DNA from: Bugula neritina
Taxonomy: Eukaryota > Animalia > Bryozoa
Length of the DNA: 64,000 bases
Direction of reading: 5' to 3'
Assembly (NCBI GenBank): GCA_964035545.1
Contig: OZ037768.1
Span: 2,574,741-2,638,740 of the forward strand
The translations under genes were made by a program, and so were the position numbers. The notes beneath the pieces were generated by a model, which had not been told where the DNA came from, searched no databases, and saw only the letters and a list, made by a program, of their open reading frames with translations. This document shows positions 29,501 to 63,016 of the stretch, one piece after another (position 1 is the first letter of the stretch; the number at the start of each line of letters is the position of its first letter).

Positions 29501-30338
29501 CTGTCTGCTTTGCTCACTTTTTTTGTCATTGTCTACACATACTATGCTGAAAATGTGATCACCAGTGTCCGGTTCCCTTGTGGCTGAAAGTTGGAAGCAG
29601 TGGAAGATCTCCCTTGTTCAGATGATGAGGGTTTAGATCTCCGCTATTGTCAATTTCCTGCAGCTGCCATTTGATCTCACCTGCATTGGTTCTCCTAACT
29701 TGCCTTGGTTACTCAGAAGTTCTTTGTAAGACTTGTGACAAAGGTCTTTAGGCTAATGAATAACTGTTGGCCAGATCTTCGTGGCAGAAACTCAATAATA
29801 AGTTTAGTGCCAGTTTCCTCACAGGCTGATTACTAGGGAGGGGGGGGGCTGTTGGTGTGTGTGCATTGTCAGTGTGCAACACATTTTAGATGGCATAATG
29901 ATTCAGTTCTTGTGTTCTATGTGATCATCTCTCCAAACCAACTTGACTCTCTCTATATTCTATCTACACTTTATCTATGCTTAACCTCCATTCTACCTAC
30001 ACCTAACTTAAAACCTACTTAGACATTTTTGCAGCCACAACTAACTACCCATCTGATTTTCTCTTTGATTCAGGCTGACACAGATGAAAAGCTTAAACAG
30101 AGGAGTGCTAGGTTTGGGGCAATATCAGGCCCAGCCCTGACAGCTGATGAAGAGGTAAGTTTGAGTTATAAAATCATTTTTATTCTGAAACGCCTTTATT
30201 GTCTTTTCAAGTATCAATCTTATTTGTGTAATACTAGCTGTTCTCTAACTGATAATGCAGTCTGTCTCTGATCTTATTGTCTCATTGGTTTTGTAGGCTA
30301 GAAAGAAGAAAAGACTAGAGAGATTTGCAGCTGCATGA
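26538..30338 (+). CDS. SARNP: SAP domain-containing ribonucleoprotein (CIP29/Tho1), 285 aa
   Basis: Exons 26538-26585, 27168-27270, 27568-27640, 27890-28076, 28160-28230, 28497-28544, 28772-28840, 29315-29450, 30074-30154, 30297-30338. SAP domain MKVPDLKKELKTRNLSTSGNKAELLERL, then seven R-x-x-[RK]-F-[GA] repeats. Confidence 0.92.
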
Positions 30339-30846
30339 ATAGGCAACTCTGGTATTCATAAATCTTGTCTCTGTTCAACTTCTGTGAACAGCATCAGTCA
30401 ACTATGCAAGATAAATGTATGATGAAAAAGTTTTAGCACAAATTTATTTAATATTTTTAAATTAGAAAATTTTCAAAATATTTCATCTGTATGAAAAAAT
30501 AATTTTTTAATGTCAACTGTACAGTCTGTAACCAGTTATTCTGGTGTCACTCTTGTGTATATATATATACCTATATAATAAACTTCTGGCTGTAAATATA
30601 CATAGTAAACATAATATTATTATACATTTAGACCCAAATATGCTTTTCCAGTTTGTCAATTATTAGTAATTTGATTCATCAATAAATGTGGTACTGTGAT
30701 ATAAATATTTACCTGACAATTTCAACTGATTCTCAATCATGGTTATACACTTCCCACTGGATTTATTATAAGTACACCAAGCTTTATACGGTATTCAAGG
30801 ATAAAGCAAGATCTATAATACAGTTTAAAATGTAATCTGCACTTTA

Positions 30847-31046
30847 TATAATACCATCAACATATAATACCATCAACATAATATAATACCATCAACATAT
30901 AATACTACCGACATATAATACCATTAACATATAATACTACCAACATATAATACCATTAACATAATATAATACTACCAACATATAATATACTATCAACATA
31001 TAAAACTATCAACATATCATACCATCAACATATAATACTACCAACA
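30847..31046. repeat. Minisatellite, ~16-19 bp unit ATACCATCAACATATA / ATACTACCAACATATA
   Basis: About 11 imperfect tandem units. Confidence 0.85.
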
Positions 31047-31730
31047 AGGGTCATATCTTGAACTCATAATTATTTCAACAAATATTATTTTGAAAGCATA
31101 TTGTAGAACCATTAATTTAATATCCATAAATATTAGCATTTTAAACTTTAATATTATTTGATGTATAGTTCTGCTTTTCACCTTTTGCTTACAATCACAG
31201 CTGTGAAAGACCTTGTTTTCTCCATATAGCCTTCAAGATAATGGTAACAGAAAGAAAGGAAAAGTAGACAGTCCTGTGCAATATACTTTTATGCACAAAA
31301 AAATAGCCCTTTACTTTCAGAATAGAATTAAATGTCGTCAATCCTATGTTGAAAGTTTTCTGTAGATTATATATTATAAAAAAAAGCTATCTAGATCAAT
31401 AAATTTCTATCTGGGCAATAGTCAGAAGCAAAAAGTGTGAAAACACAATCTATCAATAACCTAATCAATATTGGCAGCAGTTACACAATAGGCTGTGACT
31501 AAGGCTATAAGAGTTCAACCTAGTTACATTGTGTAAAAAGTGCACACAGTACAATGCTAATAATATTTCATTGTTGTGGGACTACTGCTATGTTATTTTT
31601 TAGTTGCTGTGCGACTTTTCTATTAGCTCAGTTATTATACATGGCTCTACTATCACCACTGAAAAGTTGAGAAGAACGAGGCTCTACGTCTGCGATACGT
31701 GAGCTCAGTGTGTGAGATCCCTCCCTCTAA

Positions 31731-32636
31731 ATGGGAAACTCATGCTGTGCATCACGAAGTAATCGAGTTGCAGATATTGGTATCGTAAATGCTGTTGCCG
31801 TGGGAACAAGCCTTCCTTCTCTTCAAGAATCAGCGCATCAAGTAGACTTCGAGCAGCAATGCTATGATGGCCGCTCTACTTTGCAATTACAGACACCTGT
31901 TCATAAATGTGACTTTGGGCAGCAGTGCTATGAAGGTCAATCTAGGCCAAGTTCAGTGAAACAACCTAAGAGAAATGTTGTACAGGTAGTTAATAATACT
32001 ACAGCAGCTGATGGTTACCCTATCAGCGACATTGAAATGGTGATCATGATGTGCAAAGAGTTGGAAGAAAATCTTTGGCGAAAATACGGGGCGTCTGGTG
32101 ACGGCCTAGGTAATTTGTAAACTATTTATCATATATATTTAAAAAGTTAGAAATGTTTTTGTTAAATTAGGCTTGCATTAGCAAAAAATATTCTGAGAAT
32201 GTTCATAACACATGTACAATTATTGTATTGTTACTCCAGTCGCACATAGTTCTGTGTGCATCTGTTGAAGCAGGCAGTCTTTAACCAGCCATGTAAAGCT
32301 GTTACCTGGTGCAATCAGGGAAGGACAAGTAATATTATTAGAATCTGTAGGGTTCCATTTCCAGATGAACATTAGGATAAGAGCAGAGAGAATGCTCTAT
32401 TGAAGTGCCATGGCTCCTATTTTGTGTTGTTATATTAACATATTTGGCTTTTTTGTTTACTAGGTCAGAAAGTGCATTCTGTGTCAAACGAACTACCATC
32501 TGATGTTTTTCGGGATATTAAATACAATATAGTACGAACAAGGAATCGTTTGGTGCATGACCTTCATGTCAATGGACTAGGAAATCAAAGAAGTGATTTT
32601 ATCAAAACTTTCAACCGAGTGAGATACCAGCTGTAA
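31731..32636 (+). CDS. Unannotated protein 'HEPN-A', 183 aa: N-terminal acylation motif plus C-terminal HEPN (DUF4145-like) putative RNase domain
   Basis: Exons 31731-32109 and 32464-32636, phase-1 GT-AG intron. Starts MGNSCC. C-terminal domain DIEMVIMMCKELEENLWRKYGASGDGLG|QKVHSVSNELPSDVFRDIKYNIVRTRNRLVHDLHVNGLGNQRSDFIKTFNRVRYQL; RNRLVH at 32541-32558. Paralogue on the opposite strand. Confidence 0.8.
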
Positions 32637-34230
32637 CATGTTTTTATAATTTTATTATTACATTTGTCAAGATTTGAAAATCTCAATTTTTAAGACATGC
32701 AAAAAGCAACTAGGAATAGTGCATAGTCAATTAGATAAAAGCATTAATACTTATATTTATAATATTGAAACATGATAATTAGGTTACTGGTTGTATTTAT
32801 TATGCCATAATTCAAATGTTTTTTCCAACATTTGCACTTACCAGAGATGTTATTTTTACATTCTATTATGCCTGTGGTAAATGCAGCTGAAAATCGTCCT
32901 TATTATATTTTTTTACTGTGATTTAAATATACTCTGCTCAAAACTTGTCTCCATTAGAAAGTAGGTATCTTATTTTATTTTACTGCCTGGCAATTTCTAT
33001 TCTTAGTGTTGTGGAACTTGTATTATTTATACACATGTTAGTTCTCAGAACAATTGGGAATTCGCTTGCAATAATACAAACATGAGACTGACTTGCTGCT
33101 AATATTGACCTTTACAAGTAGCTTTCAGCTAATTATTTTAGATACTAAATTGTAAAATCTCTCTTTGTTGTTGACTGTCTCTACTTACTGTTTGTTTATC
33201 GCCTAAAATGGAAACTTTAACATCACAACTTCATGTGTCATTTTTTACCCTGTAAATATGCACTTTTTACTTGCCAACTCTGGTCCTGTTTTTTTTTCAG
33301 ATCCACATGCTATAATTAGATTATAATAAACATTTATAAATTCTGACAGATTTAATTCTACATCACCACATTCCATCTAGCAGCACTGGAGACCAGTAGC
33401 TTGTTATTTGTTTGCGATTCTATAACGTGTATCTCAATGCTGACTCACATAAAATCTGTAATGTTTGCTATTAGCAAGAATGGTTAATGTTTAGCCTCAG
33501 TTGAAAAGTCATGCTGCCTCAACTTTGAAGAAATACTGTATATAGTGAGTAACACGAATACCATACATGTCCATTTCAATATTCACTGTGATCTTTCCAT
33601 ACACTGGAGTCATTACACAGCCTCTTTCAGTGATGAAAGGCAATGTGTGATTTGCTTATCACTAAGTTTAAGCTTGAGATAAGATCAATTTTTGCTCCTC
33701 TAAAACAACCTTGAAAATGTGCTGATACGTATAAGTTACATGAGCAAATGATAAGAACTTGCAATTTATGCAAAGGGAATCCCCTACCTAGGAAATTACA
33801 GGCAGCAGATTTATTTTCAGTCATTCAGCTTGAGTAAATTTGTTTTGTTGTATACAAAGGGAAAGAAGAATGGCTAGTATTTGTGCTGAAATGTTAGGAG
33901 GCAAAAACTAATTGTTGCCAATACATCAATACCTATGATCACTATTATAAGGCAGGTATTGGGCTAGTTAGTTACATAATACATACTCCACAACAGATTG
34001 AAAAGTCATTCACTATTTAGCTTCTACCAGCTGTTAGTATACATGCAATCAAATTATAACATGATGTCATATTCAAGTTTCACTCAATGATATCTGATTC
34101 CATATTATGTAATATTGTTATTGGCTTATTTTTTGAAAAAATTAAGTTTGAGTTTGACATAAATTCTACTAAACAGCACTTCTTTTTATAGTGTCTTTAT
34201 GCCTATCTTGTGTAGATTAGCTTATAATTG

Positions 34231-34290
34231 AAAAATAATTTCCCCCACTGGGAATCGAGCCCGGGTCCTCTGGGTAGACTCAGCACTACA
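34231..34290 (-). repeat. Internally deleted copy of the tRNA-like repeat at 53297-53400
   Basis: Reverse complement reads TGTAGTGCTGAGTCTACCCAG-AGGACCCGGGCTCGATTCCCAGTGGGGGAAATTATTTTT and matches both ends of the 53.3 kb copy. Confidence 0.75.
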
Positions 34291-34331
34291 ATAATTAACT
34301 TTTAAAAATCAAGCCGTGAAGCAGTTCTTCT

Positions 34332-35523
34332 TCAAGCTAAAGCAGGAAACTCTTTCTCGGTGAAAATCGGATGACTTGATTGTAAATTCACTTTACTGTT
34401 GTTCACCCATTGCATAACTTGCTCAAAAGATATCCTGAAAGTTTGTCGTTGCCTTTCATGTAGACTATTGACATCGGAGCCATGCACAAGCAGGTTTCGA
34501 AGCACCACTATGTTCATTATTACGTTGAAAATATATTCTGGAATTCTGTTTGACACAGATTTTAGTTTTTTACCTAAAAATAAGTTTTAAGAATTACTCA
34601 TATAATAAAATCTAGATATCAAATTTCTTAACATATCAAAGTTGTAAGTATTATGTGGAATATGTGCAAACTAATGGATAGTTTGAAAATAGCTAGAATA
34701 AAAGTATTTTACAACTTTAAAGCAAATGAGAATTATTTTGTGGCCATCACTTGTTTAAACTACTCAATAACCACCTAAAACTATCTAATGAAGAGCCCCT
34801 TCTTGAATCATAGCTTGATATGATATGTTGAAAGGTGTAGACAGAATTTTCTTTACCATTCTACTGCCGTGTGATCAGAAATTGATTTATTTCAGTGCCT
34901 ATAATAAAATTAGTAGTAGATATTTTACCTAGACCCTCTCCGTGAGCTTCATAGTTTTCTTTCAGCACAGTTTCCAGCTGCTTAGTCATTTTCACCACCA
35001 TTTCAAAGTCATTGTTGTGGTACTCATCATAAGCTGCCCCTACCAAGAGATGTAGTGGTTTTCTCTGACTCACTTTAGTCTCATATTTGTTAGATCTCAC
35101 AACCTGTGCAAGGGTTGGTTTTATGTATTCAGTTTGTGTATAGGCATCACGTTTTACAGCCCATTGGTGAGATGCGCTAACCCTGACTGCTGCCGGTACT
35201 ACTGCTGCCTGTGGTAAGTGTTCACCAGGTGGCAAGTGTCCACCTGGTTGTACATGTCTACCTGGTGGTACGTGTCCACCTGGTGGTACGTGTCCACCTG
35301 GTGGTAAGTGTCCACCTGGTGGTAAGTGTCCACCTGGTGGTAAGTGTCCACCTGGTGGTACGTGTCCACCTGGTGGTAAGTGTCCACCTGGCCGTACGTG
35401 TCCACCTGGTGGTACGTGTCTACCTGGTAAGTAACTTTGGGCAGATCTAGTTGGCTGCCATTCTTCATCAGATTCCGACAAACCTTCAGTACTGTCGCCA
35501 AGACAACTGCCTGTATTTCCCAT
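34332..35523 (-). CDS. Unannotated protein 'HEPN-B', 278 aa: N-terminal acylation motif, (PGGH[LV]P)x12 repeat, HEPN (DUF4145-like) putative RNase domain and C-terminal EFPALA
   Basis: Exons 35523-34929 and 34573-34332, with a phase-1 intron at the same codon as in HEPN-A. Starts MGNTGSC. Domain DFEMVVKMTKQLETVLKENYEAHGEGLG|KKLKSVSNRIPEYIFNVIMNIVVLRNLLVHGSDVNSL...; RNLLVH at 34499-34482. Confidence 0.8.
35215..35430 (-). repeat. Coding 18-bp minisatellite, 12 units, in HEPN-B
   Basis: Plus-strand unit CCACCTGGTGGTA(A/C)GTGT, encoding PPGGH(L/V) on the minus strand. Confidence 0.95.
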
Positions 35524-36519
35524 GGAAACTCAGGCCGGCCTGAATTCTGCAAGTTTTAAATCATATAATCTACATGCAGTGTTCATTTACAGCTTTTAGA
35601 ATACTTATACCATTTACAGCGTTCATAATTCTTCAGCTTTTATAGTATAGTTACATAATTTGTAAAATTTATTCTACAGCTTGTATAATACATATATTAT
35701 AAAATTAACTGGTGTATTTAATATGATGAATCTACAACGTTATCGCGGAGCAGAAAGTTAAAGTTAAGTTTCAATTCTCTAAAAACCACTAATAAGGAAT
35801 GCGCGAACACTATCATGGAAAGATAAGTATATACATACTGATAAAGCTATCTCTGCGACACCCTTATACCACAATTGTGCCAGGATAGGCTTATCGAGTT
35901 GGCTAGCAACAAGCATCGAGCAATACTTTCTTAATCTTTGAATTTTATTTACTCTTTGTCTTGTCCTCTATATCAAAATATCAAAAAATAACTACATTTT
36001 GCACAAAAATACATACATAACTAAACTTCAAATAACATCAACAAAAACATAAAACTTCAAAATTATAATTCTACTTACTAACATCAGCTCTTTATAGCGC
36101 CTTCCTGGCAAGTAAACTGTTAATAATTCTAATACATTGAAAATAACAAAACCAAAAAGCTAACAAATAGCTAAACAAGCTACAAAAAGCTAACATATTT
36201 TTTATTTAAATTTTGGCAAACAGCCAGGATTTTCTCCCTGGCACAACTATATATAGATGTAAGCAGTTACATGTAGGTTTAGTTATGCAAACACCAATAA
36301 TACAGAGTGTTCGTACCATGCATCATATGATGAGTTCCTCACTAATGATTGGCTATGTTTACTTCATTCTCTCCTGGTCCAAAAGCTTAAGCAGACCTTG
36401 TTCTGCCATGCCATACCACCAGAACTTTTATTTACTTCTTTGATGGTTTCCTTTGGCTCAAGCTACTCAACTCTTTCATCCAGAACTCATCTATACTTTT
36501 CCCTCTATGTTTCTGGTAA

Positions 36520-36863
36520 GCCTAGGGCCACACTGTGCGTATTTTCGCATGCGAAAATTGAAATCGCAAGTAGCAAAGGTGTCCACTGTAGTGTCAGTGA
36601 CGCATGATAAATGAAGCTTTCATTTTTAAATCGCACTGGCTTTCAATAAAACGCAATTCACTGGAATATAGCACTAAAATAAAGAAATTGGGCTCGCTGA
36701 ATAACTACTAGCCAATTAGGTGACGACGACAGAGACGATTCGCACTTGCGTTGAGAATGCTGAGCTACAAGTGCGAATGTTTTCTCAACGAGTACAGTGG
36801 ACACCTTTGCTACTTGTGATTTCAATTTTCGCATGTGAAAATACGCACAGTGTGGCCCTAGGC
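36520..36863. mobile_element. MITE, PIF/Harbinger (Tourist)-like, 344 bp
   Basis: About 71-bp terminal inverted repeats (GCCTAGGGCCACACTGTGCG..., 2 mismatches) flanked by TAA at 36517-36519 and 36864-36866; no coding capacity. Confidence 0.85.
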
Positions 36864-36866
36864 TAA

Positions 36867-36930
36867 GTATTAGTGGCTAGGGCACTGTCTTAGCACACAC
36901 AAGGTCAGCGGTCGAATCCCAGTAAAGACA
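36867..36930 (+). mobile_element. Degenerate tRNA-derived SINE head
   Basis: TAGTGGCTAGGG (A-box-like) and GGTCGAATCCC (B-box-like) at tRNA-like spacing. Confidence 0.45.
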
Positions 36931-37934
36931 ATACTATACCTAGTTGTTAGAGTTATAATTTGACAGCTAGCTCTTTATTGCACTAAATATTACAAGCAAC
37001 AGAACTAAGAACAAAAAACATAAGTAGCACACTTAGTAGATAGCTATAAAATTGCTATTACAGATAAGCAGCTAAGTACAATAGACTAAGAAACAAAAGC
37101 ACATTCAAATAACATCAACTGATTCAATGTGTGGCTATAAACATATTTACTGACAACAGTAGTGATGTTAGGAAAGGCATTGAGTAATAATTCCTCATTT
37201 GCCACAATAGAAAGCAAGTTCTTGGCCATAACTTTAGAAAAAATTGCCATCAGAGGTTCTGGCAATGGTGTTTATTATAAGCCAACAGAAGTTTTCATTC
37301 TTGAAAAGGATAATTTTTTATATGCTACTCAGTAATTATGAATGACTTATGAAATGCAGCAGTTTTCCTGCTGCCTTTATTAGCAAACTTCCATCAGCAG
37401 CAATTTTGCTTTTTTGGAACACTGGCATTGCTTTTTAGATAAGTCATATAGACTTTCTCTCCCTGCTTACCTCCATAGTCTTGACAAATATTGTGTTTTC
37501 AAGCTTCCATAAATGCATTAACTAACCAAAGTATTTAAAAATTCTAAGTTTCATTTGTATTTCTCACAATGCTAGGTTTACTTCATTTCTCAGAAATATT
37601 AATTACTCCAGCTTTTTTTATAATTACAAATAATATATACAATTTACTCAGAATATCTGTAGCCACATATATATTATATATGAAATTACAAAATCATGTA
37701 TGAAATCAAGTAAAATAAACATAAAATTAAATTTAAATTCAAAGGTTTTTTGTTAGCAGTTCTTTACGCCTCGTTTTATAGTTTCTTAACAGTTTTTGAT
37801 CAAATAATAAGTTGTCTAGGACAAAAAACATGATATATAATCATATTACGTAAAAATATCAAAGGTTGTATAATATTGTTATTTCGTGATAAGAGTTTGC
37901 ACCTATATAAAGTTGCAATAAAACTTTAAAATTG

Positions 37935-40171
37935 TCAAATCATCAACTTCTCAACTCCGTAGGCAATGTCCAGAAGTTTTGCTTCCTCAAAATGCTTGCA
38001 TACAATCTGCAAGCCAACCGGTAGAGGTTTGGTACCACCCTGCAGGAGAAAAAAGTTTAAAAACGTTCAAGCTACAATCGGTTTAATAAAATGTGTTTCT
38101 GTGAAGTTTGTTAGTGTGGACAATTAAAAAAGTATTTAACTAGTAAAACACCGACAAATCTCTCAATGCCAATGTTGGGAAAAAATTCGTTGTGTAACAC
38201 GTGATGAGTTGAAAAAAAAATTATATTATATGCTCCATGAAAAAATTCATAGCATCTACACTTTTTATATACTTACTGTACTTACACTTAATACCAATAA
38301 TGTCAGCACAAAACTTACATCATCTGGTTGAACTTTTCCTACATTCAAAGACAGAGCCGGATGTCCTGTGAGATTGAAAGGAGCGGTGTTAATATTCTTA
38401 AACTGGCCCACTTCATCTATAGATTCTGCAAAGGGAGGAATAGTTGAAAGTTGTTAGTTTTTGTTAATATGAAAAAAAATTAACTAATTTCTCATAAGTT
38501 GCTAAGTGACTGTGTAAATTGTGAGAACTTTTTGAGTGTCAAAGCTATGAAAAATATTGTCAATAAAATTAAATGTCATTGATGCTATAGATTTAGCTAT
38601 ATCTACAATTCAATTTTACAAATTTTACTACTCTTACTGCGGGTGTATTTATTAACTGTTGATGTTAGGTTGAGTAAGAATGCAGTTTTACATTAAAATC
38701 TTAGTTAGCTTTTCAACCAGCCAAAAGAGATACAAAAGATATAATGAGAATAAATATAATATGCGTTCAAGTTTACAGTTCCATAGCTCCATAGGCCACG
38801 GTTAAAGCTGAAATTTAACAGTTAAACACAGAACTATAAATATTCGTGCAAAGCAGCCAATATTCTAATGAAAGAAATTAGTCCACTTATTATTGCCTAG
38901 CTTGGTGATGACTGATGAGTCAGACGAGATATAAGAATACTAATCTTCAAGAAGAGCTAATTTCCATGTGTGCAGTTTTATTACATCACTAGATGTTCAC
39001 TATTATTAAATCATTATAGCAACAACTCAGACCTGAGCTAAATGTTGTTATTAGATGCACTCAGTCACCGGACGGGCTACAGCTAGGCCCATTGTTTTAT
39101 GCCTATTCGGTTGAAAATAACTTGGGGTTCTACTGTCACATGGATTCAGCTTGTTTGTTAGTTCAAAATTATTGATAAAATGTTTAACTAGCATAGAACT
39201 TTAGGCTTTTGCAATGCTTTAGTTTTAATGATATTAAACTATTTAGCAATTTATAGTAACAGTTTACCTTTAGGTGTGAGATCCAGGGGTGGTAGTTTTA
39301 CAGCAACAAATGGTATGGTAGGCATAATCAAGGCATCATATTTCTCTAAGACATCATTGTATGCTTTTCTTAGTGTAGGTCTACAGTTCATTGCTCTAGC
39401 AACTATCTGATTTCCTGGAATTTACCAAAAATAAATGGAATATATTTTTGCAAATTCTAGTGAAACCTTTAGATTTTAGAAGGTTTGAAATTAGTATATA
39501 TCATTAGTACCAAAATAATTTAAAACTCAGTTCAATAGCATACAAAAAAGTAATAAAATCACTGTTATGTGTAAATAGATATCAATTTCTACAAACTGCA
39601 AACACAGTATTTTTCAACTCCTCTTTTAGTTGAATGTATTTGAGTTGCCAAAGAGGGTAACTTCTGAATATCATAGTAACCATAGCAACCCTTGATTATA
39701 TGATAGGAACTCATAAACAAGATGTATCAGCTTAAGGAATATTTATAGAGTATAAACATTTGTCAACTGAAAAGGGTAATTTTCTTCAAGAATGGCTGAC
39801 CGCTTTTTAGAAATAATTTTACAAACAAATTTTCATGAGAATTATTATCAAAATCAATAAAATTTTACTTATTTCAAGTTAGATAAATTGGTTTGGAAAT
39901 GTATAATTGTTTGAGATAACTCATTTACAAAATGCTATAAACAAACATAGTATTTTGTTGTATATTTCAAACTAGGAAGTGTTTGCAGTAGTGAGAAGGT
40001 ATATAAAGTTATTATAACTACATTGCATACATACCATCTTTCTTTCTTATATACTCCCCAAACAATGGATAAGTTTTAGCAATGGGTATGAGATCATGAG
40101 TCCTTCCCTGTAACATGTAACATTTTGTTATCACTATATGCTCATTTATTTCATCAATAATTTATTGATGA

Positions 40172-40235
<64 letters not shown>

Positions 40236-43200
40236 CAAATGCTTGGGGCAATAATTTTATTTAGTATTAGGAAGCAAAATACTAGTAGAATTACCTTCAT
40301 AGCTTGTTTAAAGTGGCGTAATGCAGACACGTTGTAGAGCTCATTGAAGCCTGGTGATTGGCTGAAGTTTTCAAACATACAGTCGTAATACGCAGGTATT
40401 AGTGCCGTCATTAAAATATCACCTTCAACATAGTAGATAAACTATAGGCTTTGGACCTTAGACTGTAAACTATATACCGTATAATGTAGACTGTATACTA
40501 TATACTGTATAATGTGTAATGTATACTGTATACTGTATACTGTATAATGTATACTGTAGACTGCATACTGTATACTGTATAATGTATACTATACATATAA
40601 TGTGTAATATATACCGTATACTGTATATTGTGTAATATATACCGTATACTGTATACTATATACTGTATACTGTATAATGTATACTGTATAATGTAGACTG
40701 TATAGCTACTATATTATACTGTAAGCTAAATACTCGATAAGCTTTTTAATATAATCCGCAACTTGCATCTTAGACTCGCGAATAGATGCTAGTGTTTTTT
40801 CACAATAGTGTACTACTCTATAAGCTATAAAATTACATAATGAGTTGAAAATAATTACTTTGTGCATGAAGAGGTATGCTGACTTCTTCTACGACAGCCC
40901 CTGACTCTCTCAGTTTAGTAATCACATGACTCATTACAGACTTCACACCATCAGAAGCTTTTCCAGAACCTTCTTTGACATAACCAAACTTTACTCCAGC
41001 TAAATCACCTGTCAGCTGAATATGTCATGAGTATAATGAATTGATATAACGCAATTACTATTTTAATTACTGATATGAGTTTAAGTCAACTTGAGACCTA
41101 CCAGTTGACTATATTTTGGTATGACTAAGTGAGGATTCTGCCTATGATCTCTACCATCATCATATCCTGCAATGACCTCTAGTAACTTAGCCACATCAGT
41201 GACATTAGAGGCCATTGGGCCCAGGTGGTCAAAAGATGGTTCCATGCCTGTAAGATAATAAGCAGTTCTAATTAAAAAACATACATTGTATGATTATTGG
41301 TTTTATAAATTATAATAATTATAGTAATATTTAAAACTAACTATTGTTATTAGTAGATATTTACACAACTACTGTAAATGCAGATATGGTATTTCTATAT
41401 ATTTAAATTATATAATAAATAACAATTATTATATAATGTAGAGTCCTATACACAAAATGCCATCATTTCTATAAAAAACTGCTTATGAGCCAAAATGCAT
41501 ATACATTTTTTGTTTCAAACACAGTTTAGAATCAATGCAAATTATTTGGTGCAAGCAAGTGATGATAACATTATTTAATATTATATATATAGGCTGATTT
41601 TCTTAGTAATGAGTCATAGTTTAATTATTTATACTTGTCTAAAATATAATTGCAACTTTATATAATATAATGTTGTATAATTTTATCTATTGAAGAATAT
41701 AAGAAACTATTATTTTCATTCTGTGAATGAGATGAAGATAAATAGGCTCATATTTAAGTAATGCAATTGTTATTATTATGTTATTCTACTCTACCTAAAG
41801 ATCCAGTTACAGGAACTAAACCAAATGTAGCCTTAAGTCCTACACAACCAGACCAACAGCATGGCATACGAATAGACCCTCCCTGATCACCTCCAATAGC
41901 CATGTCCACTTCACCGGTTGCTACCTGCAAGGTTTCTAGCAAGGTTTTTGCTATCCTTGAATATGATTTCATGAAATCAAATAATAAAATTGTTTTACAG
42001 TTTCACATATGCTAAGTTGATAAAGTACTAGTTGAAGCAACTTGGAACAACTTTTTTGTGATCTTAAAATAATATTCTGTAAAACCTACCAAAACAGCAC
42101 TCCCAGAGCTGGATCCACCTGCAGACCTGGTGACATCATGAGGGTTGGGTACTGGACCACTCGCACTGGTGAAACTGTTCCCTGAGCAACACTGGTTCTC
42201 ACAAGTTGACTTTCCAACAATGGTCCCACCTATACATGTACCATGAGCGCTATGAGTAATCTCATTTGTGTCTTGCAGTTTGATTCATGCAGCAGCTTTA
42301 AAGTTTGTTGGAATTTATATTGCTTTTTGCAGCTACCACTGTGCATCATTTTAATAAGAATGAGATAATCAAATGCTGCTACTTTTTAAACTCCTAAACT
42401 TATAACCAAAACAATTTCTGTTTAAGGTAAGATAAAGAGTATAAACTATAATAGTAAATTTGTTCTTAGTTGTTATTAATTTCCAGTGATCCATCTGAAA
42501 GCTAAAACATTTTCACTCAATATTATTAGATGCTTTTTTGGTTGTTTCCATTTTTCTATGCATTAATGAAAGTTTTTAAGAGAAAACTTTGTGTTGCCAA
42601 ATTAGTTTGCTTCTATGAATGATGTCTTAACCTGCTTGCAGTATTCTAGTAACGACTGTAGCATCAAACTCTGGGGTGTATCCTTCCCATATTTTAGATC
42701 CATTTGTTAGTGGAGTTCCAGCAATAAACACATTGTCTTTTATTGCTATTGTTTTTCCAGCTAAGATTCCAGCATTTTCTCCTTTGATTTCCATTTTAGT
42801 TGCCCTCAAAAGAGATAATAACTCCACCCAATAATATAGAAAATTGAATGACAGCTATGCATGTTTGAATTTTTGTGACTAATATGTTATAGGTTTTTTT
42901 ACCAGGTATTGTAGGGGTTATCTTTTCTTGCTGGTTTCACTCCTGGAGTTCTTGGATACAAAACTGGAATTGTTTCCTCTTCAATTGACCGTAAACCATC
43001 ACATGTCTTTAGCCAAGTGTTGATAACTTCTGTAAAAATATTTATGGCTAATAAACGTACCTTCTTTTTATGACCTTTAGCTATTAACCATACTTCCCTC
43101 CAACGTCAGCCTGATAAATTTCTAGCCACCATTTATTAAAAAACTCAAACTGCTAACAATAGATGGCTCTATAATTTATTTTCTTAAAATTCATGCAGCT

Positions 43201-43924
43201 AATCTATACACTTGTGTAAACAAGAAGTCCAATAGCTTGAACAAGGTCCTAAGAAATAGTTTAATTATGCAGTGACAAGCAGAATGCTGCATCATTTTTA
43301 CTGGTCCAGATCTAGCACTATAAATCTAGCACTAGACACAAGACTAACAACTAGCTGCAGAATATATAAATATTTAGAATCATGTGACCTACAAAGTTCA
43401 AACGTACTTACTGTTTACAATCAGGAGAGCACAACTGCATATGATATAACCAGAAGTTATTAGCTCATTACTAGAGAGAAATAGAAACTATTTCTAAATT
43501 GAATGAAATGTGAAGCAAAGCTGAGCAATAAGCCATGCAGTTTTATACTCTTTGATAGATCTATTCTAATGTAAAATAAATCTATACAGCAAACCACCAT
43601 TCACCTAAATACTCTTTGATTTGGTCTTCATTGATTCCAAGATTGAGACCTGCTGAAATCTGAGATAAATCTGCAGAAGAAGCTGGTTCAACCAAAGGGA
43701 TATCTGCAACATAACAAAACTGAGGTGTTTTAGTCGAACCATTTGAATAAATAACTAATGTTAACTACCATAGATAGAAGATCTAACATGCAACTACATG
43801 CAATCATTGCAGTACTTTTAGACTAACAAAACCTTAAAACTGTGCAGCTGGTTGTAATCTACTGCATATCATAACACACCAACCTAACACCTGCCTACTT
43901 ACATGATTTCCTCTCATCCTCCAT
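37935..43924 (-). CDS. Amidase signature-family enzyme, CX3C type, paralogue 1, 517 aa
   Basis: 13 exons: 43924-43903, 43703-43605, 43029-42903, 42804-42632, 42229-42090, 41924-41795, 41247-41102, 41015-40859, 40422-40295, 40107-40035, 39414-39268, 38425-38319, 38039-37935. Triad motifs [20 protein letters not shown]; CENQC; [10 protein letters not shown]; LPVGLQIV. Confidence 0.92.
40174..40233. repeat. (TA)n microsatellite
   Basis: About 30 units, intronic. Confidence 0.97.
40459..40722. repeat. 7-bp tandem repeat (TATACTG/TATAATG), intronic
   Basis: About 37 imperfect units in amidase 1 intron 8; absent from the equivalent intron of paralogue 2. Confidence 0.9.
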
Positions 43925-43983
43925 GTGATCCTCCTGTAGTAGTGATTGTAGAACTTGTTACCAGTTCAAGAGACAGAATTATG

Positions 43984-44210
43984 TTTATATAAAAGTCATT
44001 GCTGTTAAAATAAACAAGTGGCCTTGATTTAGCTAGGAGTGGATGCAAAAGGTGATGCCCCTAACAGTAAAAGTTGCTTTATCAGTATAACTAAGTCATG
44101 CAGTTACAAACAACAATAGCACTGGTGTGGTTATCACCATAATTCTAAGGATGTTGCATAGCAAATGCAAAAAGAAAACAAGTCTCGGAACATCATTTCA
44201 GCCAATAGGA
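43984..44210 (-). promoter_or_regulatory. Putative amidase-1 promoter (TATA box plus a single CCAAT box)
   Basis: TATATAAA on the minus strand at 43991-43984 and AGCCAATAG at 44200-44208. The upstream block ...GATTTAGCTAGGAGTGGATGCAA is shared with paralogue 2. Confidence 0.5.
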
Positions 44211-45749: not shown

Positions 45750-48700
45750 TTATTCTGTCATCAACTTCTCAACTCCGTAGGCAATGTCCAGAAGTTTTGC
45801 TTCCTCAAAATGTTTGCATACAATCTGTAAGCCAACTGGTAGAGGTTTGGTACCACCCTAGAAAATTCAGCTAACTGTGTTAATATTCATACACTCAGGT
45901 GAACAGTGCTAAGCACAACAGCATCCAAATATAGACTTTGTAATTCTAATCTATACAGAATTTAAACTAGCTGAAACAATATCTGAATTGTCTAAATTCT
46001 GCCCAATGATTACTGTTTTTCCAATTTATATTAAAATTATTATTAAAATATCTGTAACTAAAAACTGAAACTATGTTAAAGTATCACATTTATACTCATA
46101 GATGTTCTCTATAATGACCATCGACCACAAACCAATCTGTCCATTTATATATTGTGAAGGAATACTTACATCATCTGGTTTAACTTTTCCCACATTCAGA
46201 GACAAGGCAGGATGTCCAGTTAAATTGAAGGGAGTCACGTTGACTACTGGAGACTGCAATGCTCTGATAAACTCTGCAGAGTGTAATAATAATATATCAA
46301 TAGTGTGTCTAATAGGATTCTTATGTTAAGTACAATATGAAAAGCATTTCCTGGTTTGCAGGTCATAAATCAAGTGCCATATACAATATACATATTTAAC
46401 TCTATTATGAAATTGTCAAAAGTTATTGAATTGTTGTATTGTTTCTTGTGAACTATTATATACTGAATCATCAGAATGGTTCAGAAGAGAATAAACAACT
46501 TAAGTTTACTGTTTGTTTAAAATAAAATATTTGGTTAGTATAGCAGGTTTTACTTGTATATAGAGTTGAATACTTTAGAACTAAAGCAAATGAAGTTCAG
46601 AATTTAGGTTAATCAAACAGTTTTCAAAACATAGACGGTGTAAAATCAAAATAACAACATGAGTCAAATTTATTTGAATATAGACAGAATTTCACTCAAA
46701 GTGTGGTTCATATAAAACATCAGCTCCTCATTTTTGTTCAAATTTCCAAGTATTGACAAGATAACGTTCATAGCTACTTCGGTTGTGTTACCAGTCGATA
46801 AACCAATATAACAGTACATCAAGACTACCTATTCGTCATGGAATTCAGGGAGTGAAAGATTACCTTTAGGTGTAAGATCTAGGGGTGGCAGTTTTACAGC
46901 AACAAATGGTATGGTAGGCATAATCAAGGCATCATATTTCTCTAAGACATCATTGTATGCTTTTCTCAGTGTAGGTCTACAGTTCATTGCTCTAGCAACT
47001 ATCTGGCTTCCTTGAATTTACCAAAAATATTCTTTAAAACTAGCACTAGAAGGTTTGAATAAAATAAATTGATCACGTTATAAGAAAAATAACTGTTTGA
47101 TTCAATTGAATAGTCTTTTACTGTTAACAGTTTTGAAATTACCATCTTTTTTTCTGATAAATTCTCCAAACATTGTATAAGCTTTAATCGAAGGTGGCAT
47201 ATCGTGAGCTCTAATCTGTAAAAAACCATGAAACGCATTCCTAAACTAAATACAGGCATTTTTCCAGTTGAATCTGTCTAAAGATTTTATTTATTAACAG
47301 CAGAAGCAATCATAGCCTCACATTCAGTTATTTGGAACAATCTTATTACAAACTTGTAATTTAGTCCTGGCCCTGTTACAGCAGAATCAATAAATATATC
47401 TGAAGACTTCTTTTTGGACACAATTAGTTCTTTTAATTTAGAAGTTGAAAAGTTCAAGGTCAAGATTGGATGAAGTCGCATATTAAAGTCACATTTACAT
47501 GCCATTTGCTTTAATTTCACCTAGATTACTTCTTAAATCTTGAAGTTTATATTACCTGCAAAGCTTGCTTGAAATGACGTAATGCAGACACATTGTACAT
47601 CTCATTAAAACCTGGTGGTTGGCCATAATTCTTAATCATACTTTCATAGATTGCTGCCAGCATTGCCATACTTATAGGTCCCCCTTTCCAATAGTCAAGC
47701 AGCATTAATTCATTAGGCTATTTTTAAGTGTTAATGCATTTCTCAATAATGTGATGAGCATTAACAAATCATTTTTGCTCTTTATTGAGATATGTTTAAG
47801 ATGTTCAAACTTCATATAAAATTGGAAACAAAGTAATAGTCTTGAAAGACTAGGAGTTAAACAGCGACTATTTTAAAACTTATAAGGAAACAAAAAACAA
47901 TCAATAAGTGTCTAATTTTTTTCATACTATAAACTATTAAATTTTAATAGAAGTTACTTTGTGCATGAAGAGGTATGCTGACTTCTTCTACGACAGCCCC
48001 TGACTCTCTCAGTTTAGTAATCACATGACTCATTACAGACTTCACACCATCAGAAGCTCTTCCAGAACCTTCTTTGACATAACCAAACTTTACTCCAGCT
48101 AAATCCCCTGTCAGCTGAAAATATAAAGAGTAATTAATCGATCTAATGTAATCATTATTTAAAGTTTAATTATATGAGTTTTAGTCAACTTGAGACGTAC
48201 CAGCTGACTATATTTTGGTATGACTGCGTGAGGATTCTGCCTATGATCTCTACCATCATCATATCCTGCAATGACCTCTAGTAACTTAGCCACATCAGTG
48301 ACATTAGAGGCCATTGGGCCCAGGTGGTCTAAAGATGGTTCCAAGCCTGAATTAAATAAAGATAAAAACCATTGTATGGTTGGTTATACTAGACTAATCT
48401 TTGAAATTAATTAGTATTAGTTGATAGCTTTACAATTTACTTGGCAAATATATAACGTGGGCATTATTTTATATGTAATACAGATAATAATTATTACCAA
48501 ATTAAGATATTAAGTGTTAGATATATGTAATGTTGAGCTATATGCACATATCTGTTTTATATGAAAAACATGGATTTTTTTAATGAGATTAGCTTTAATG
48601 CAGAGCATTTGGTTTGAGTTGATACTATTTGCAGCCCTAACTGATTGTACCTAAGCTAATTGCCCTAGCTATTATGACTATAAATTCATTCAACCTGACA

Positions 48701-50983
48701 GCTACTCCCTGAAATATAATGGCACAGCAATTACTGGTACATGTTGCTTTTACTGTTACTATTACTTTTTACATTCTGTCTATGGAATAAAGATTTTTAT
48801 TGTTATATTTTCTACTCTACCTAAAGATCCAGTTACAGGAACTAAACCAAATGTAGCCTTAAGTCCTACACAACCAGACCAACAGCTTGGCATACGAATA
48901 GACCCTCCCTGATCTCCTCCAATAGCCATGTCCACTTCACCAGTGGCTACCTGCAAGGTTTCTATATAGCAAGGTTTTGCTATCCTTGAATATGATTTCA
49001 TAAAATCAAATAATAAAATTGTTTTACAGTTTTGCATATACTAAGTTGATAAAGTACTAGTTGAAGCAGATTGAAATAACCAATATGACTTTTTGGTAAA
49101 TAAAGTGTGATCTTGAAGTAACATTCTGTAATACATACTAAAACAGCACTCCCAGAGCTGGATCCACCTGCAGACCTGGTGACATCATGAGGGTTGGGCA
49201 CTGGACCACTCGCACTGGTGAAACTGTTGGTTGAAAAACACTGGTTTTCACATGTTGACTTTCCAAAAATAGTTCCACCTACACCGTACAGTGTAAAGCT
49301 ATGGGAGCTTTGTGTGCTGGCCACAGTATAGCAGGTATGATTTAAATCAAACTACACGAAATTATTCTACCTGAGAGTAATTTAATATCTTTTTGCACGA
49401 TGTGGTAGTAAGTAATAAAATCATGAATAAAGGGTAGTAAAATTAATATGTAAATCTTAAGTTAAGCTGTTCAGTAATAAATTTCACAAAATGGCAACTG
49501 AATTTAATGATCACATGCCAAAATTAAACACGTTGATTTAATTAAAAGGATAAAATGTTTCACTGGAAAGCTTTTCTAATATGAATAATGTCTTAACCTG
49601 CTTGCAGTATTCTAGTGACAACTGTAGCATCAAACTCTGGGGTGTATCCTTCCCATATCTTAGATCCATTTGTTAGTGGAGTTCCAGCAATAAATACATT
49701 GTCTTTTATTGCTATGGTTTTTCCAGCTAAAATTCCAGAACTTTCTCCTTTTATCTCTACTTTAGTTGCCCTAAAAAAAGTTATAACTCCACACAATATT
49801 TATGGCAAATTGAAGGACAGCTACATGTTTAAATTTCTTTGAATAATATGTTATAGGTTTTCTTGTTACCAGGCATTGTATGGGTTGTCTTTTCTTGCTG
49901 GTTTCACTCCTGGAATTCTTGGATACAAAACTGGAATTGTTTCCTCTTCAATTGATCGTAAACCATCACATGTCTTTAGCCAGGTGTTGATAACTTCTAT
50001 AAAAATATTCATGGTTAAGAAAAGCACCAGGGTTTGTATCATCCTCATTTAGTAATCAACTTTCCTCTAACATTACAGCTCTAATGTCAGCATGATAAAC
50101 CCTTAACCAGCTAGTTTTTATTTGCAAATTCAAACTTTAAGCAAAACATGGCTCTATCAGCTAAAATGTAATCTTGGCTTCAATATTAATTTTGCTGTTA
50201 ATTTATTTGAACATGAAGTCTGAGTGTTTGAACAAGCTACTATATTAAATAGCTGCCACTACAGTAAACACAATAAAACTATCTTATATAACACTAGGTC
50301 TGTGACAGAAGACTTGCAAATAGCTGAAAAATATAAAAACATTTATCATCATGTGACCTACAAAGTTCAAACATGGTTATAATTTACGCTCTCAACCATT
50401 GGGCTAGCACAACTTCTAGAGTTATATAGAACTTATTAGCACACTGCTATAGTAAGAAATAGAAATCAAATGTGACTCAAGCACTGAACAACGTGCCAGT
50501 TTACCTATAGGCCTACATACTCTTTGATATATGACTTAAAGTAACAACAACTATACAAATTTGATAGCAAACCACCATTCACCTAAATACTCTTTGATTT
50601 GGTCTTCATTGATTCCAAGATTGAGATCTGCTGAAATCTGAGATAAATCTGCAGAAGAAGCTGGTTCAACCAAAGGGATATCTGCAACATAACAAAACCG
50701 TGGGGTGCTTTGGTATAATCATTTAAATATTTCTACGGACCTTACTAGTGGACAAAATATTAATAACTTTGCCCAATCAGCATCAATATTACAACTTATT
50801 CGTTCAAACCGGTTCAAACCTGTAATTCTTATTTATCCATTCAACTCAAATGTAACTTGGCATGTTTTGCCGGTTTTCCCAATTTTATATGCTAAAACTC
50901 TAACTAGTGATTGTAATCTACTGCATATTATAACACATCCACTTAATACCTCTCTACTTACATGACTTTCTCTCTCCCTCCAT
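45750..50983 (-). CDS. Amidase signature-family enzyme, CX3C type, paralogue 2, 517 aa
   Basis: 13 exons: 50983-50962, 50681-50583, 49996-49870, 49770-49598, 49278-49139, 48950-48821, 48346-48201, 48114-47958, 47683-47556, 47215-47143, 47010-46864, 46273-46170, 45857-45750. Same exon structure and catalytic motifs as paralogue 1. Confidence 0.92.
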
Positions 50984-51022
50984 GTGATCTTTTTGTAGCA
51001 GTGACAGTGAATGTGAAGCTTG

Positions 51023-51262
51023 TTTATATAAAAATCATTTTGAGCTAAAACAAACAAGTGGTGTTGATTTAGCTAGGAGTGGATGCAACAATCTGATAAA
51101 CCCCCAACAAGAAAATTTTTGTAGCCAATAGAATAAGTTGCAAGTTATTATAGCCATTAGAATAAGTTATAGGTTATTATAGCCAATAGAATAGGTTGTA
51201 AGTCATTATAGCCAATAGAATTGGTTGTAAGTTATTATAGCCAATAGAATTGTTTGTAAGTT
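51023..51262 (-). promoter_or_regulatory. Putative amidase-2 promoter: TATA box plus a 5x 29-bp repeat carrying CCAAT boxes
   Basis: TATATAAA (minus strand) at 51030-51023. Units of AGCCAATAGAATAAGTTG(C/T)AAGTTATTAT start at 51123, 51152, 51181, 51210 and 51239. Confidence 0.6.
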
Positions 51263-53296: not shown

Positions 53297-53400
53297 TGTA
53301 GCGTTGAGTTTACCCAGTAGCTCCCGTGGTGTAATGGTAGCACACTTGCCTGCAAGCCAGAGGACTCCGATTCGATTCCCAGTGGGGGCAATTATTTTTC
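53297..53400 (+). repeat. tRNA-derived repeat (pseudo-tRNA at 53320-53390 within a larger dispersed element)
   Basis: Acceptor stem GCTCCCG/TGGGGGC and the D-arm pair, and a TTCGATT loop is present, but the anticodon and T stems do not pair. Flanks are shared with the copy at 34231-34290. Confidence 0.7.
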
Positions 53401-55097
53401 ATCTACATTCTACTAATTTTATATATCGACATTTGTTTTGTAAAATAAATGTCTCCATCAAGACATGCTACCCAGTACATTATAAAGGCTATAATGAAAT
53501 TCCAACCCAAGGTGTTTTGTGAAAATCAACGACTTCTTCAAAATGAGGCAGCTCTTATAATATATTTTAGAACATTATAAATATTTATGTCAGCTAACTG
53601 TATATAATTTTATATAAAGGTGTGAAGTTGTTATAAAAGCCTTCTAATTGCATGTTCACTAGTAAAATGTTACACTCTTTGGTTCACATGGCTGCTGTTT
53701 TAACAATCTTGTGAATTTACCGTTTATGCAATCATAACAGGAGTTATTCTCCTTTTAGATGCATAATATGTGGATATCGGCAACCGTACAATGCCTATTA
53801 GGTTTAAACCCACCTAAGAAATCGAAAGATCGAATCAGGATTTCACAGACTATCGCAGCTACTCAAATCTCTACATTTAACAAAAATGGCAGCGCCCTGT
53901 GTCAAAACTTTAACATGCAGTTAATAATTTTGCTTCGCCCAGTTTGCAAACTATTTGGGACAAGCTCATTTTTAAGCTATGCCAATGCTGCTGTAAATAA
54001 TTTTTAGCGAAACAGTTTTCTCAGCTAGTGCTTTTGGAACTATCTTCATTTTGCTTTTGCTTGTGCCTGCGAGTGTGGGCTGTAAGTCTCAGTCAGTGTG
54101 AGCGTCAGTCACTGTCACCACGGTGACTGTCAGCGAGTGTGAGACTGAGAGTGGGTAGTTGCGGTGACTGTTGCTGCTGGATTGGGGTTGGTCAGAAACC
54201 GAAATACCTACTTTGATTCTACAGGTACGTCTACGGTCTAGTTTAACTTATAAGTTATAACAAAAGCTAAACCTAACGGTATCCCAAGGCCAATCTGGTA
54301 TTGTAATTGACATTGCCCATTTCAGTTGCGTCTGCAGTGTCACACTGACACTCACTATCGAATCCTAATCTAATGCTAAATTTTGAATTTATGCACAACA
54401 AATGTATAATGATAATCGTTGCCTGGAAAATTAAAATGAAATAGAATTTCAAGTATTTGTATTTAAATATATTGTCAGAGTGTTTAAGTTACAATTAAAG
54501 ATTACTGTTAAACTTCTTGACACTTTCATAAGTTTTACTAGTTGTTGTTTCTACTACTATTTTTTTTATAAATTCATTTCATAGCATATTATTCTTTTAA
54601 GTCGAACTCAATTATACTCATACTGAATAGTTCTAATATTACCTTTGAGTTCAATACCATTACATCATGTTACTGTTAATGAAAGTCAATCAATATCTTA
54701 AACAATGTCACACATATTTATTCATCAGTTCAGCTGAGTTATTTTGAGTTTATCAGGAATACTTCCAGACTAATAACTGATAACTGTACCTAGTAATAAT
54801 ATTAATTATGGCCCTGACAATACTGGTTTTGTAGACAGTAATTGTAAAGTTGTAATATAGGTTTTCCACATGTGAATGCACTTAGTTTGATACTAAGATA
54901 ACTTGTTGTATGGTTAAGATTTTATTCTCTACTGTTGTATATATAATTATTATATCTTTCTGAGTGTCTCTAATTATAGCAGTGGTGAAGATATGAAATC
55001 AAGAGTTTGGCCATTATTTCTAATTATAGTTGCTGTGAGGATACTTAATAAAAAAGGTTCAACTTTATATTGTTACTACTAGTAACTAGAAACAGCT

Positions 55098-62064: not shown

Positions 62065-62090
62065 CTGAATACTAGTGTAAGAAGAACAAG

Positions 62091-62996: not shown

Positions 62997-63016
62997 CTTC
63001 CGCCAACCGTGGGCCT
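62972..63016 (+). promoter_or_regulatory. Programmed -1 ribosomal frameshift signal
   Basis: Slippery heptamer T TTA AAC (62972-62978) in the gag frame, a 6-nt spacer, then a 10-bp stem GGCTCACGGT/ACCGTGGGCC (62985-63015). Confidence 0.85.

Follow-up and report, generated by a model that had tools for sequence, protein, structure and literature searches.

The window analysed here is a stretch of 64,000 nucleotides from the bryozoan Bugula neritina (GenBank assembly GCA_964035545.1, contig OZ037768.1, positions 2,574,741 to 2,638,740 of the forward strand), in which all positions are counted from the first letter. It contains two intact paralogous genes, here termed A and B, that encode proteins of 183 and 278 amino acids (aa) after the predicted splicing and that end in a shared domain of the family of the Vibrio cholerae protein VbdR (VC0142), which we place in the HEPN superfamily.

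Results

Gene structure

An earlier note on this DNA, made from the letters alone, had described two tail-to-tail two-exon genes sharing a C-terminal domain of ~85 aa that is split by an intron, and the coordinates bear this description out: the two-exon genes converge, A occupying 31731-32636 on the forward strand and B 35523-34332 on the reverse strand, both with GT-AG introns (Table 1). Once spliced, the two C-terminal domains are identical at 41 of 89 positions (46%; pairwise E 7e-18), and the phase-1 introns both fall within one codon of the domain, that of the final glycine in GL-G. The motifs RNRLVH and RNLLVH that the note had read in the two domains were recovered at the positions listed. 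The low-complexity middle that it had attributed to both genes holds for B, with its 10 PPGGH-type units, and does not hold for A, whose linker carries two DFxQQCYxG units.

Table 1. Features of genes A and B, in window coordinates
Feature	Position	Strand	Description
Gene A exon 1	31731-32109	+	Start MGNSCC of the N-acylation type; linker holding two DFxQQCYxG units; initial helix of mini-HEPN domain
First mini-HEPN helix of gene A	32022-32109	+	Includes conserved E112
Gene A intron (predicted)	32110-32463	+	354 nt, GT-AG, phase 1
Gene A exon 2	32464-32636	+	Remainder of mini-HEPN domain
RNRLVH motif of gene A	32541-32558	+	R153, N154, H158
Gene B exon 1	34929-35523	-	MGNTGSC N-acylation-type start, Pro/Gly/His repeat tract, first domain helix
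First domain helix of gene B	35016-34929	-	Includes conserved E184
Gene B repeat tract	35211-35428	-	18-bp tandem repeat coding for 10 PPGGH-type units; 2 units in P0185
Gene B intron (predicted)	34574-34928	-	355 nt, GT-AG, phase 1, codon position as in gene A
Gene B exon 2	34332-34573	-	Remainder of mini-HEPN domain and short tail
RNLLVH motif of gene B	34482-34499	-	R224, N225, H229

Splice sites are near consensus in both genes (donors TAG/GTAA, acceptors pyrimidine-rich and ending in TAG/GT), and an in-frame stop lies just upstream of each ATG, with a TAA directly before that of gene A. The two introns have no detectable DNA similarity to each other, 143 of 200 shuffles scoring as high. 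Their shared position suggests that the domain was present in the animal lineage before the duplication.

Integrity and selection

Depth in read run X1 is even across the introns of A and B, which suggests DNA reads, and over both genes it equals that of the flanking genes (~100-150 in most bins). The allelic coding changes listed comprise seven synonymous and five missense changes (n = 12) and no stops, and the coding GC of A and B (0.42-0.46) is like that of the neighbours tested (0.36-0.54). P0017 and P0185, both of them Logan gene calls, read through from a B-like exon 1. The changes of P0017 relative to B affect 0 of 30 residues in the domain, 4 of 36 in the linker and 6 of 21 in the intron read-through (domain versus intron, p 0.003; domain versus linker, p 0.12), conservation falling at the donor, while P0185 retains MGNTGSCLG and the domain and has 2 repeat units instead of 10. 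Together these patterns speak for the donor site, for a domain under selection and for an N-terminal motif that is retained. We consider it very probable that both genes are expressed and spliced.

At least one further, diverged B-like copy is present elsewhere in the genome. Two more contigs of run X1 (depth ~75) match B exon 2, with 44 differences in 216 bases, and the end of B exon 1; over exon 2 the copy has ~80% nucleotide identity and its intron boundaries match. When the differences listed are read site by site, 22 of 25 are non-synonymous, 29 of the 69 differences lying outside that list. An apparent stop at S206 of this paralogue was dismissed, as it arose from two changes of one codon being read separately. 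The contigs match window positions 34372-34587, 34673-35133 and 35106-35197, and in one of them pieces resembling exon 2 and exon 1 are joined within ~300 nt, which points to copies arranged in tandem or to a copy with several domains.

The domain family

A search with exon 2 of A led to an Alteromonas plasmid protein in which the domain is unsplit and which shares 43% identity with spliced A across 82 aa. The family set was built up from this protein and then 15 more full-domain relatives, together with bacterial genome loci (270, of which 80 were kept, mostly from Vibrionaceae and Planctomycetota) and 72 metagenome loci. Scored against a profile of 106 non-animal members, A reaches 78.1 bits (profile positions 7-95; E 6.6e-17) and B 65.9 bits (positions 13-99; E 3.8e-13), with E computed at a database size of 1.84e9; none of 1,000 shuffles exceeded 2.6 bits. 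All four exon halves match the profile separately (E 6e-10 to 6e-7), and the next best of the 1,962 open frames in the window has an E of 0.7. The best BLAST matches of A include P0131 (63.5 bits) and P0143 (63.2), tied with the bacterial P0004 (62.8); identity to VC0142 over 62 aa is 37% for A and 35% for B. Judged from these profile and pairwise scores, A and B almost certainly belong to the VbdR domain family.

The family is large, barely studied and common to bacteria and algae. A family profile search returned 1,807 clusters at E<=1e-3 and 1,128 at E<=1e-10, with a profile that included transmembrane (TM) columns, such that its weakest matches may be inflated; none of the best 150 of the 1,807 matches is recognisably animal. 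Bacterial members include 14 plasmid records and 2 viral loci. A phage collection yielded no family match, and relatives were found with the eukaryote-type profile in 0 of 16 viral candidates.

Existing domain models barely capture the family. The best Pfam match of B exon 2 is DUF4145 (PF13643; E 0.002, score 18.6 against a gathering cut-off of 23.1), A exon 2 alone gave no DUF4145 match, and no Pfam family, and hence no sensor domain, was matched on either exon 1. Among the 106 family members, DUF4145 matches 12 at E<=0.01 and the other HEPN models match one to three each, HEPN_Swt1 matching one. NCBI labels some bacterial members as 'DUF4145 domain-containing', so the HEPN link of bacterial members is implicit in databases. 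Word-based searches with B exon 2, a method insensitive for half a domain, found no close annotated protein. The ESM Atlas provided leads only (unnamed bacterial clusters, Csm6-HEPN, RnlA and DUF6548). An ankyrin/DARPin identity of B exon 2 was rejected: it rests on one LLxHGxDVN stretch, with no 33-aa tandem repeat, and that stretch aligns to the HEPN motif.

Some members carry two to four domains in tandem (P0019, P0020, P0024, P0026, P0044, P0052 and P0076), several of their clusters being labelled Thermoguttaceae. One copy usually lacks the GLH histidine or the motif, making these proteins natural pseudo-heterodimers. For the two-domain member P0026, the predicted model has a predicted local distance difference test score (pLDDT) of 84 and a predicted template modelling score of 0.73, and a structure search matched each domain separately.

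Fold and catalytic residues

The fold was assessed on an AlphaFold2 model (pLDDT 93) of P0004, a bacterial member from a planctomycete, which has helices at residues 3-22, 29-35, 42-60 and 70-88 as well as a TM helix. A comparison of the domain with HEPN families by Foldseek, which the earlier note had suggested, gave a divided answer when run on this model: rows 1-10 are all HEPN proteins or HEPN toxin-antitoxin entries, and their E-values are only 0.3-0.75. VIA-align gave HEPN structure 2hsb as best match (Z 9.7, root-mean-square deviation 2.2, 91 residues aligned), and 11 of its top 19 rows are titled HEPN or come from families listed as HEPN in PMC3710099. The P0004 model aligns from residue 25 of 2hsb, so that helix 1 of the canonical bundle, as PMC3710099 describes it, appears to be missing from the family; on this model we refer to it as mini-HEPN, a putative HEPN fold without helix 1. 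Motif, family profile and P0004 fold matches together support the note's HEPN reading, and we take the domain of A and B to belong to the HEPN superfamily on this support.

The family motif ends helix 42-60 of the P0004 model, and RNRLVH and RNLLVH align to it. Conservation of the R, N and H in homologues, on which the note had made its reading depend, amounts to 99% each in 174 domains, a figure that is partly circular, since a profile holding the motif was used to collect the rows. The helix-2 glutamate (E112 in A, E184 in B) falls in a column that is 99% E, the full Ex3K form being present only in B. Both proteins keep profile residues E15, G26-x-G28-L29, S35, R55, N56 and H60; in the A-x-G-x-G-L loop, likewise kept, the following His is replaced by Gly. 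Canonical HEPN elements, as given in the accessible text of PMC3710099, are an R-x4-H with a polar residue and an acidic residue in helix 2. By residue comparison, these canonical elements are intact in A and B and the family-specific ones are not, and we regard the two as a divergent sub-branch, not as typical members of the VbdR-like mini-HEPN family. On balance, we would expect at least one of the two to be an active ribonuclease (RNase). In the natural tandem members P0020, P0032 and P0139 the GLH histidine is lost and RNxxxH is kept.

Predicted membrane anchor

TM helix prediction found none in A or B, and neither has a CaaX motif. Their starts, MGNSCC (A) and MGNTGSC (B), fit a myristoylation pattern, and nearby cysteines could be palmitoylated; the MG start of B is kept in P0185. 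Both proteins are thus predicted, with good probability, to be lipid-anchored. The membrane tethering that the earlier note had drawn from these two short motifs gains backing from anchors across the family. A hydrophobic helix is present in 82 of the 86 family open reading frames (ORFs) from loci, and among 160 family proteins, whose relatedness means that they are not independent, 128 have a TM helix only, 7 have CaaX only, none has both and 25 have neither. The 72 metagenome loci divide similarly (52 TM, 3 CaaX, 0 both), those three also starting with MG, and 3 of the 7 CaaX proteins have a myristoylation-type start ahead of the domain, against 1 of 153 others. That a single 85-residue domain comes with three different anchors suggests that its function requires a location at the membrane.

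The eukaryote-type branch with CaaX, often an MG start and no TM helix includes P0122, P0107, P0131, P0143, P0147, P0148, P0097 and P0150, and loci L087-L089. Among the CaaX proteins whose sources were looked up, two are eukaryotic on record, namely a Rhodomonas transcript product (P0122) and a EukProt entry (P0107). In P0025, P0090 and P0096, the family domain is fused to a C-terminal domain with a 'CFIATAVY' motif in place of the TM helix, which we take to be a membrane-associated tail of bacterial proteins and a possible fourth type of anchor.

The Vibrio relative VbdR

Vibrionaceae members of the family adjoin yhgN, rsmD, ftsY and a gene that we take to be yhhN, and these neighbours recur in 36-39 of the 86 loci clustered. 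In Vibrio the family member keeps a fixed place at this housekeeping locus and does not lie in a defence island. The V. cholerae member (L072:5001-5369, motif RNKVVH) is VC0142, that is, VbdR: AAF93319.1 matches the family ORF over the part shown in the GenBank text of the PMC6050953 supplement.

According to the portion of the preprint that is accessible (bioRxiv 10.1101/2021.05.02.442311), vc0142 was named vbdR and encodes a conserved unknown domain and a TM domain. VbdR is induced by starvation, HapR and CRP, and its induction leads to biofilm dispersal with only eight genes up-regulated, pilT and pilU most highly; overexpression caused no substantial growth defect, and the authors describe no recognisable catalytic domain. 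The words 'HEPN' and 'RNase' do not occur in the main text of that preprint. Given its intact RNKVVH and its membership of a HEPN family, VbdR is a candidate membrane-bound RNase. The published CRP site precedes the small gene VC0142a and is located ~415 nt downstream from vc0142 (PMC6050953), and the preprint's promoter mapping may therefore mix vc0142 and VC0142a. Within L072:5431-5799, this CRP site precedes a 26-aa minus-strand ORF, and the coordinates given for a 'VC0142/VC0143 sRNA' in the portion of PMC3136459 available fall, by coordinate offset, on the same ORF; that RNA may be an mRNA.

The defence or toxin role that the earlier note had proposed finds little here to sustain it. The low toxicity of VbdR and the fixed Vibrionaceae locus fit neither a toxin nor a defence island, and PADLOC, run on 106 relatives, returned weak CARF-HEPN-type matches: the best E was 7e-4, and no model matched more than 4 of the relatives at E<=0.01.

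Origin

A and B form one long-branched clade, with a Shimodaira-Hasegawa-like approximate likelihood ratio support of 93 in a quick tree of 176 rows and 97/92 in a careful tree, which comprises 40 hand-chosen rows of the 176 and ~100 columns, too few to name the source of A and B. The free tree places the pair outside the CaaX group. Forcing it together with seven CaaX-type proteins was not rejected (approximately unbiased test p-AU 0.62, log-likelihood 5.75 higher), and for this reason we do not claim transfer from bacteria; on the alignment, A and B may derive from a protist-like ancestor or from transfer.

Discussion

A proposed mechanism and the points against it

The explanation that we tentatively favour is that A and B are small membrane-held HEPN RNases that would cut a narrow set of RNAs as dimers, and that they would act as regulators rather than as killing toxins. 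N-terminal myristoyl and palmitoyl groups would hold both proteins on the cytoplasmic face of the membrane; crowding, or a signal sensed through the variable linker, would pair two domains; and the paired R-N-x3-H motifs would then cut a narrow RNA set. HEPN RNases act as dimers (available text of bioRxiv 10.64898/2025.12.03.690598 and 10.1101/760058), and since HEPN chemistry needs two motifs meeting in a dimer, membrane crowding would be the switch. Low toxicity and a narrow, stress-linked output would be expected by extrapolation from VbdR. The fold (on its stand-in) and the anchor are predictions, and the dimer, the activity and the regulatory role are steps that we infer. By analogy with VbdR, a regulatory rather than a defence role seems somewhat to be preferred.

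Several observations weigh against this explanation. The Foldseek search with the P0004 model gave no match at E<=0.001, VIA-align Z values under ~13 can reflect a common helical bundle, and the modelled fold is that of a bacterial stand-in for A and B. Both animal proteins lack three residues conserved in the 174 domains, namely H30 (97%; replaced by G), R49 (95%; replaced by K or M) and A52 (98%; replaced by V), and they keep 16 (A) and 14 (B) of 21 conserved columns; with their long branches, these losses mean that catalysis may be changed or lost. In some HEPN families, a His in the helix 2-3 insert can be an active-site residue (PMC3710099, part available). VbdR is only ~36% identical to A and B, so its role need not carry over, and the accessible text of its preprint reports raised mRNAs, no assay for RNase activity and a vbdR deletion that still disperses (10.1101/2021.05.02.442311). 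Finally, the non-synonymous excess in the B-like copy is easier to reconcile with defence paralogues that evolve fast, or with a copy in decay, than with a quiet regulator.

This last point leads to the foremost alternative, which we think unlikely: A and B would be effectors of innate immunity or against parasites, part of a small expansion of active HEPN RNases in their lineage that stays inactive until clustering at the membrane sets off the destruction of RNA. The further diverged copy (at least one, with its 22 non-synonymous changes among 25 listed), the long branches of A and B and the variable repeat tract would all suit such effectors; expansions of Swt1-like genes in Daphnia and of KEN genes in Oikopleura offer a precedent (PMC3710099, in the sections available), and a few bacterial relatives reside on plasmids (14 records) or viral contigs (2 loci). 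Set against this are the missing growth defect on VbdR overexpression in the accessible preprint text, the fixed housekeeping locus of the Vibrio members, the lack of any matching phage record, the weak and few PADLOC matches, and an exon 1 that in neither gene matches a Pfam family or has a sensor domain. The copies indicated, moreover, amount to a handful and not to dozens.

It appears less probable still that A and B are catalytically weak or dead, HEPN-fold, lipid-anchored adaptors that bind RNA or protein and keep the motif for folding or RNA contact. Adaptors would be in keeping with the absence of H30, R49 and A52 from A and B and with the apparent lack of helix 1 in the family, as well as with the up-regulated transcripts and the absence of a catalytic domain reported for VbdR in the part of the preprint available, and non-catalytic HEPN families do exist (PMC3710099, available text). 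However, both proteins retain R, N, H and the helix-2 E although they have diverged by 54%, and the tandem members P0020, P0032 and P0139 drop the GLH histidine yet keep RNxxxH. That the genes are unexpressed relics or an artefact of assembly or contamination is very improbable: the word-based searches with B exon 2 would permit it, but the open frames, the consensus splice sites at one shared position, the flank-like X1 depth, the listed allelic changes (seven synonymous, five missense, no stop), the purifying pattern in P0017 and the neighbour-like coding GC all speak against it.

If the favoured explanation of A and B as membrane-held regulatory RNases is extended to their relatives, a broader and distinctly speculative scheme can be drawn, of which we remain doubtful: a cross-domain family of minimal HEPN RNases, with three helices plus an insert, would be switched on by membrane crowding, the anchors being TM helices in bacteria, myristoyl and prenyl groups in algae and protists, and N-acylation with variable linkers in this animal lineage, and A and B would form an asymmetric heterodimer. 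Were it true, VbdR would be a membrane-bound RNase rewiring transcripts in biofilm dispersal, and A and B would represent an unseen membrane RNA-decay or immune pathway.

Comparison with known systems

VbdR resembles A and B in its domain family, its RNxxVH motif and its plan of a single small domain with a membrane anchor (predicted in A and B), and differs in having a C-terminal TM helix and keeping GLH and R49; in A and B the lipid motifs are N-terminal, the linker is long and the gene contains an intron. The CaaX members (Rhodomonas P0122, EukProt P0107 and others) share with A and B the lack of a TM helix, a predicted lipid anchor and often an MG start; unlike A and B, which have N-terminal cysteines, a long linker and no CaaX, they carry a C-terminal CaaX and keep GLH. 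Pfam DUF4145, itself a HEPN family and the best match of B exon 2, keeps RxxxxH as A and B do, but occurs in bacteria, archaea and double-stranded DNA viruses and is fused to restriction or helicase modules (PMC3710099 Table 1, as far as available).

The membrane HEPN groups of section 15 of PMC3710099 and Ire1/C6orf70 have in common with A and B a proposed degradation of RNA at the membrane face, and differ in their TM helices, kinases or sensor domains (accessible text). A third membrane group described there, with an N-terminal HEPN domain and TM helices (Planctomyces), may overlap the VbdR-like family; the part of that paper available mentions no lipid-anchored or animal member of the VbdR-like type. 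The Daphnia Swt1-like and Oikopleura KEN sets of the same source consist, like A and B, of stand-alone HEPN genes with intact motifs that have multiplied within a single animal lineage, and the Daphnia set is closer to bacterial versions. Unlike A and B, they belong to other HEPN families, Daphnia has 46 copies versus few here, and no lipid anchor is mentioned in the sections available (PMC3710099).

In a literature search from whose coverage subscription journals fall largely outside, we found no paper that connects HEPN with VbdR or with lipid-anchored proteins of eukaryotes, and no description of this HEPN family in eukaryotes. With the gene pair, a HEPN family that Pfam hardly captures gains an animal branch and, through the CaaX proteins, a eukaryotic branch with predicted lipid anchors; the pair would also give a concrete mechanism to VbdR, a regulator described without a catalytic domain. 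If active, A and B would count as very small HEPN RNases and offer a simple model of how clustering at a membrane activates such enzymes.

Window neighbourhood

The window has ~33% GC and includes a long C2H2 zinc-finger array with TGEKP linkers. Pfam searches on 17 frames of the window named five (glutathione S-transferase, amidase, the C2H2 array and a retroelement protease) and gave a weak ANTAR match for one more, and an MRPS25-like exon is a weak match (E 0.006). The position at the edge of a housekeeping cluster that had been suggested for A and B is therefore only loosely backed.

Rfam gave no match on 30000-38000. Between A and B lies a short high-copy repeat (34229-34273, again at 53357-53401; depth ~4,000), resembling the head of a tRNA-derived short interspersed element, with no Rfam match. 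Directly beyond gene B are two tandem amidase genes (Pfam Amidase; 37940-44075 and 45758-51118), 74-97% alike in matching stretches. An element with 72-bp inverted ends that are 97% alike occupies 36519-36864 at a depth of ~240,000 and is likely a very high-copy miniature inverted-repeat transposable element, and GC-rich gag/protease frames of a long terminal repeat retroelement, with an aspartyl protease match, fill 62076-64000.

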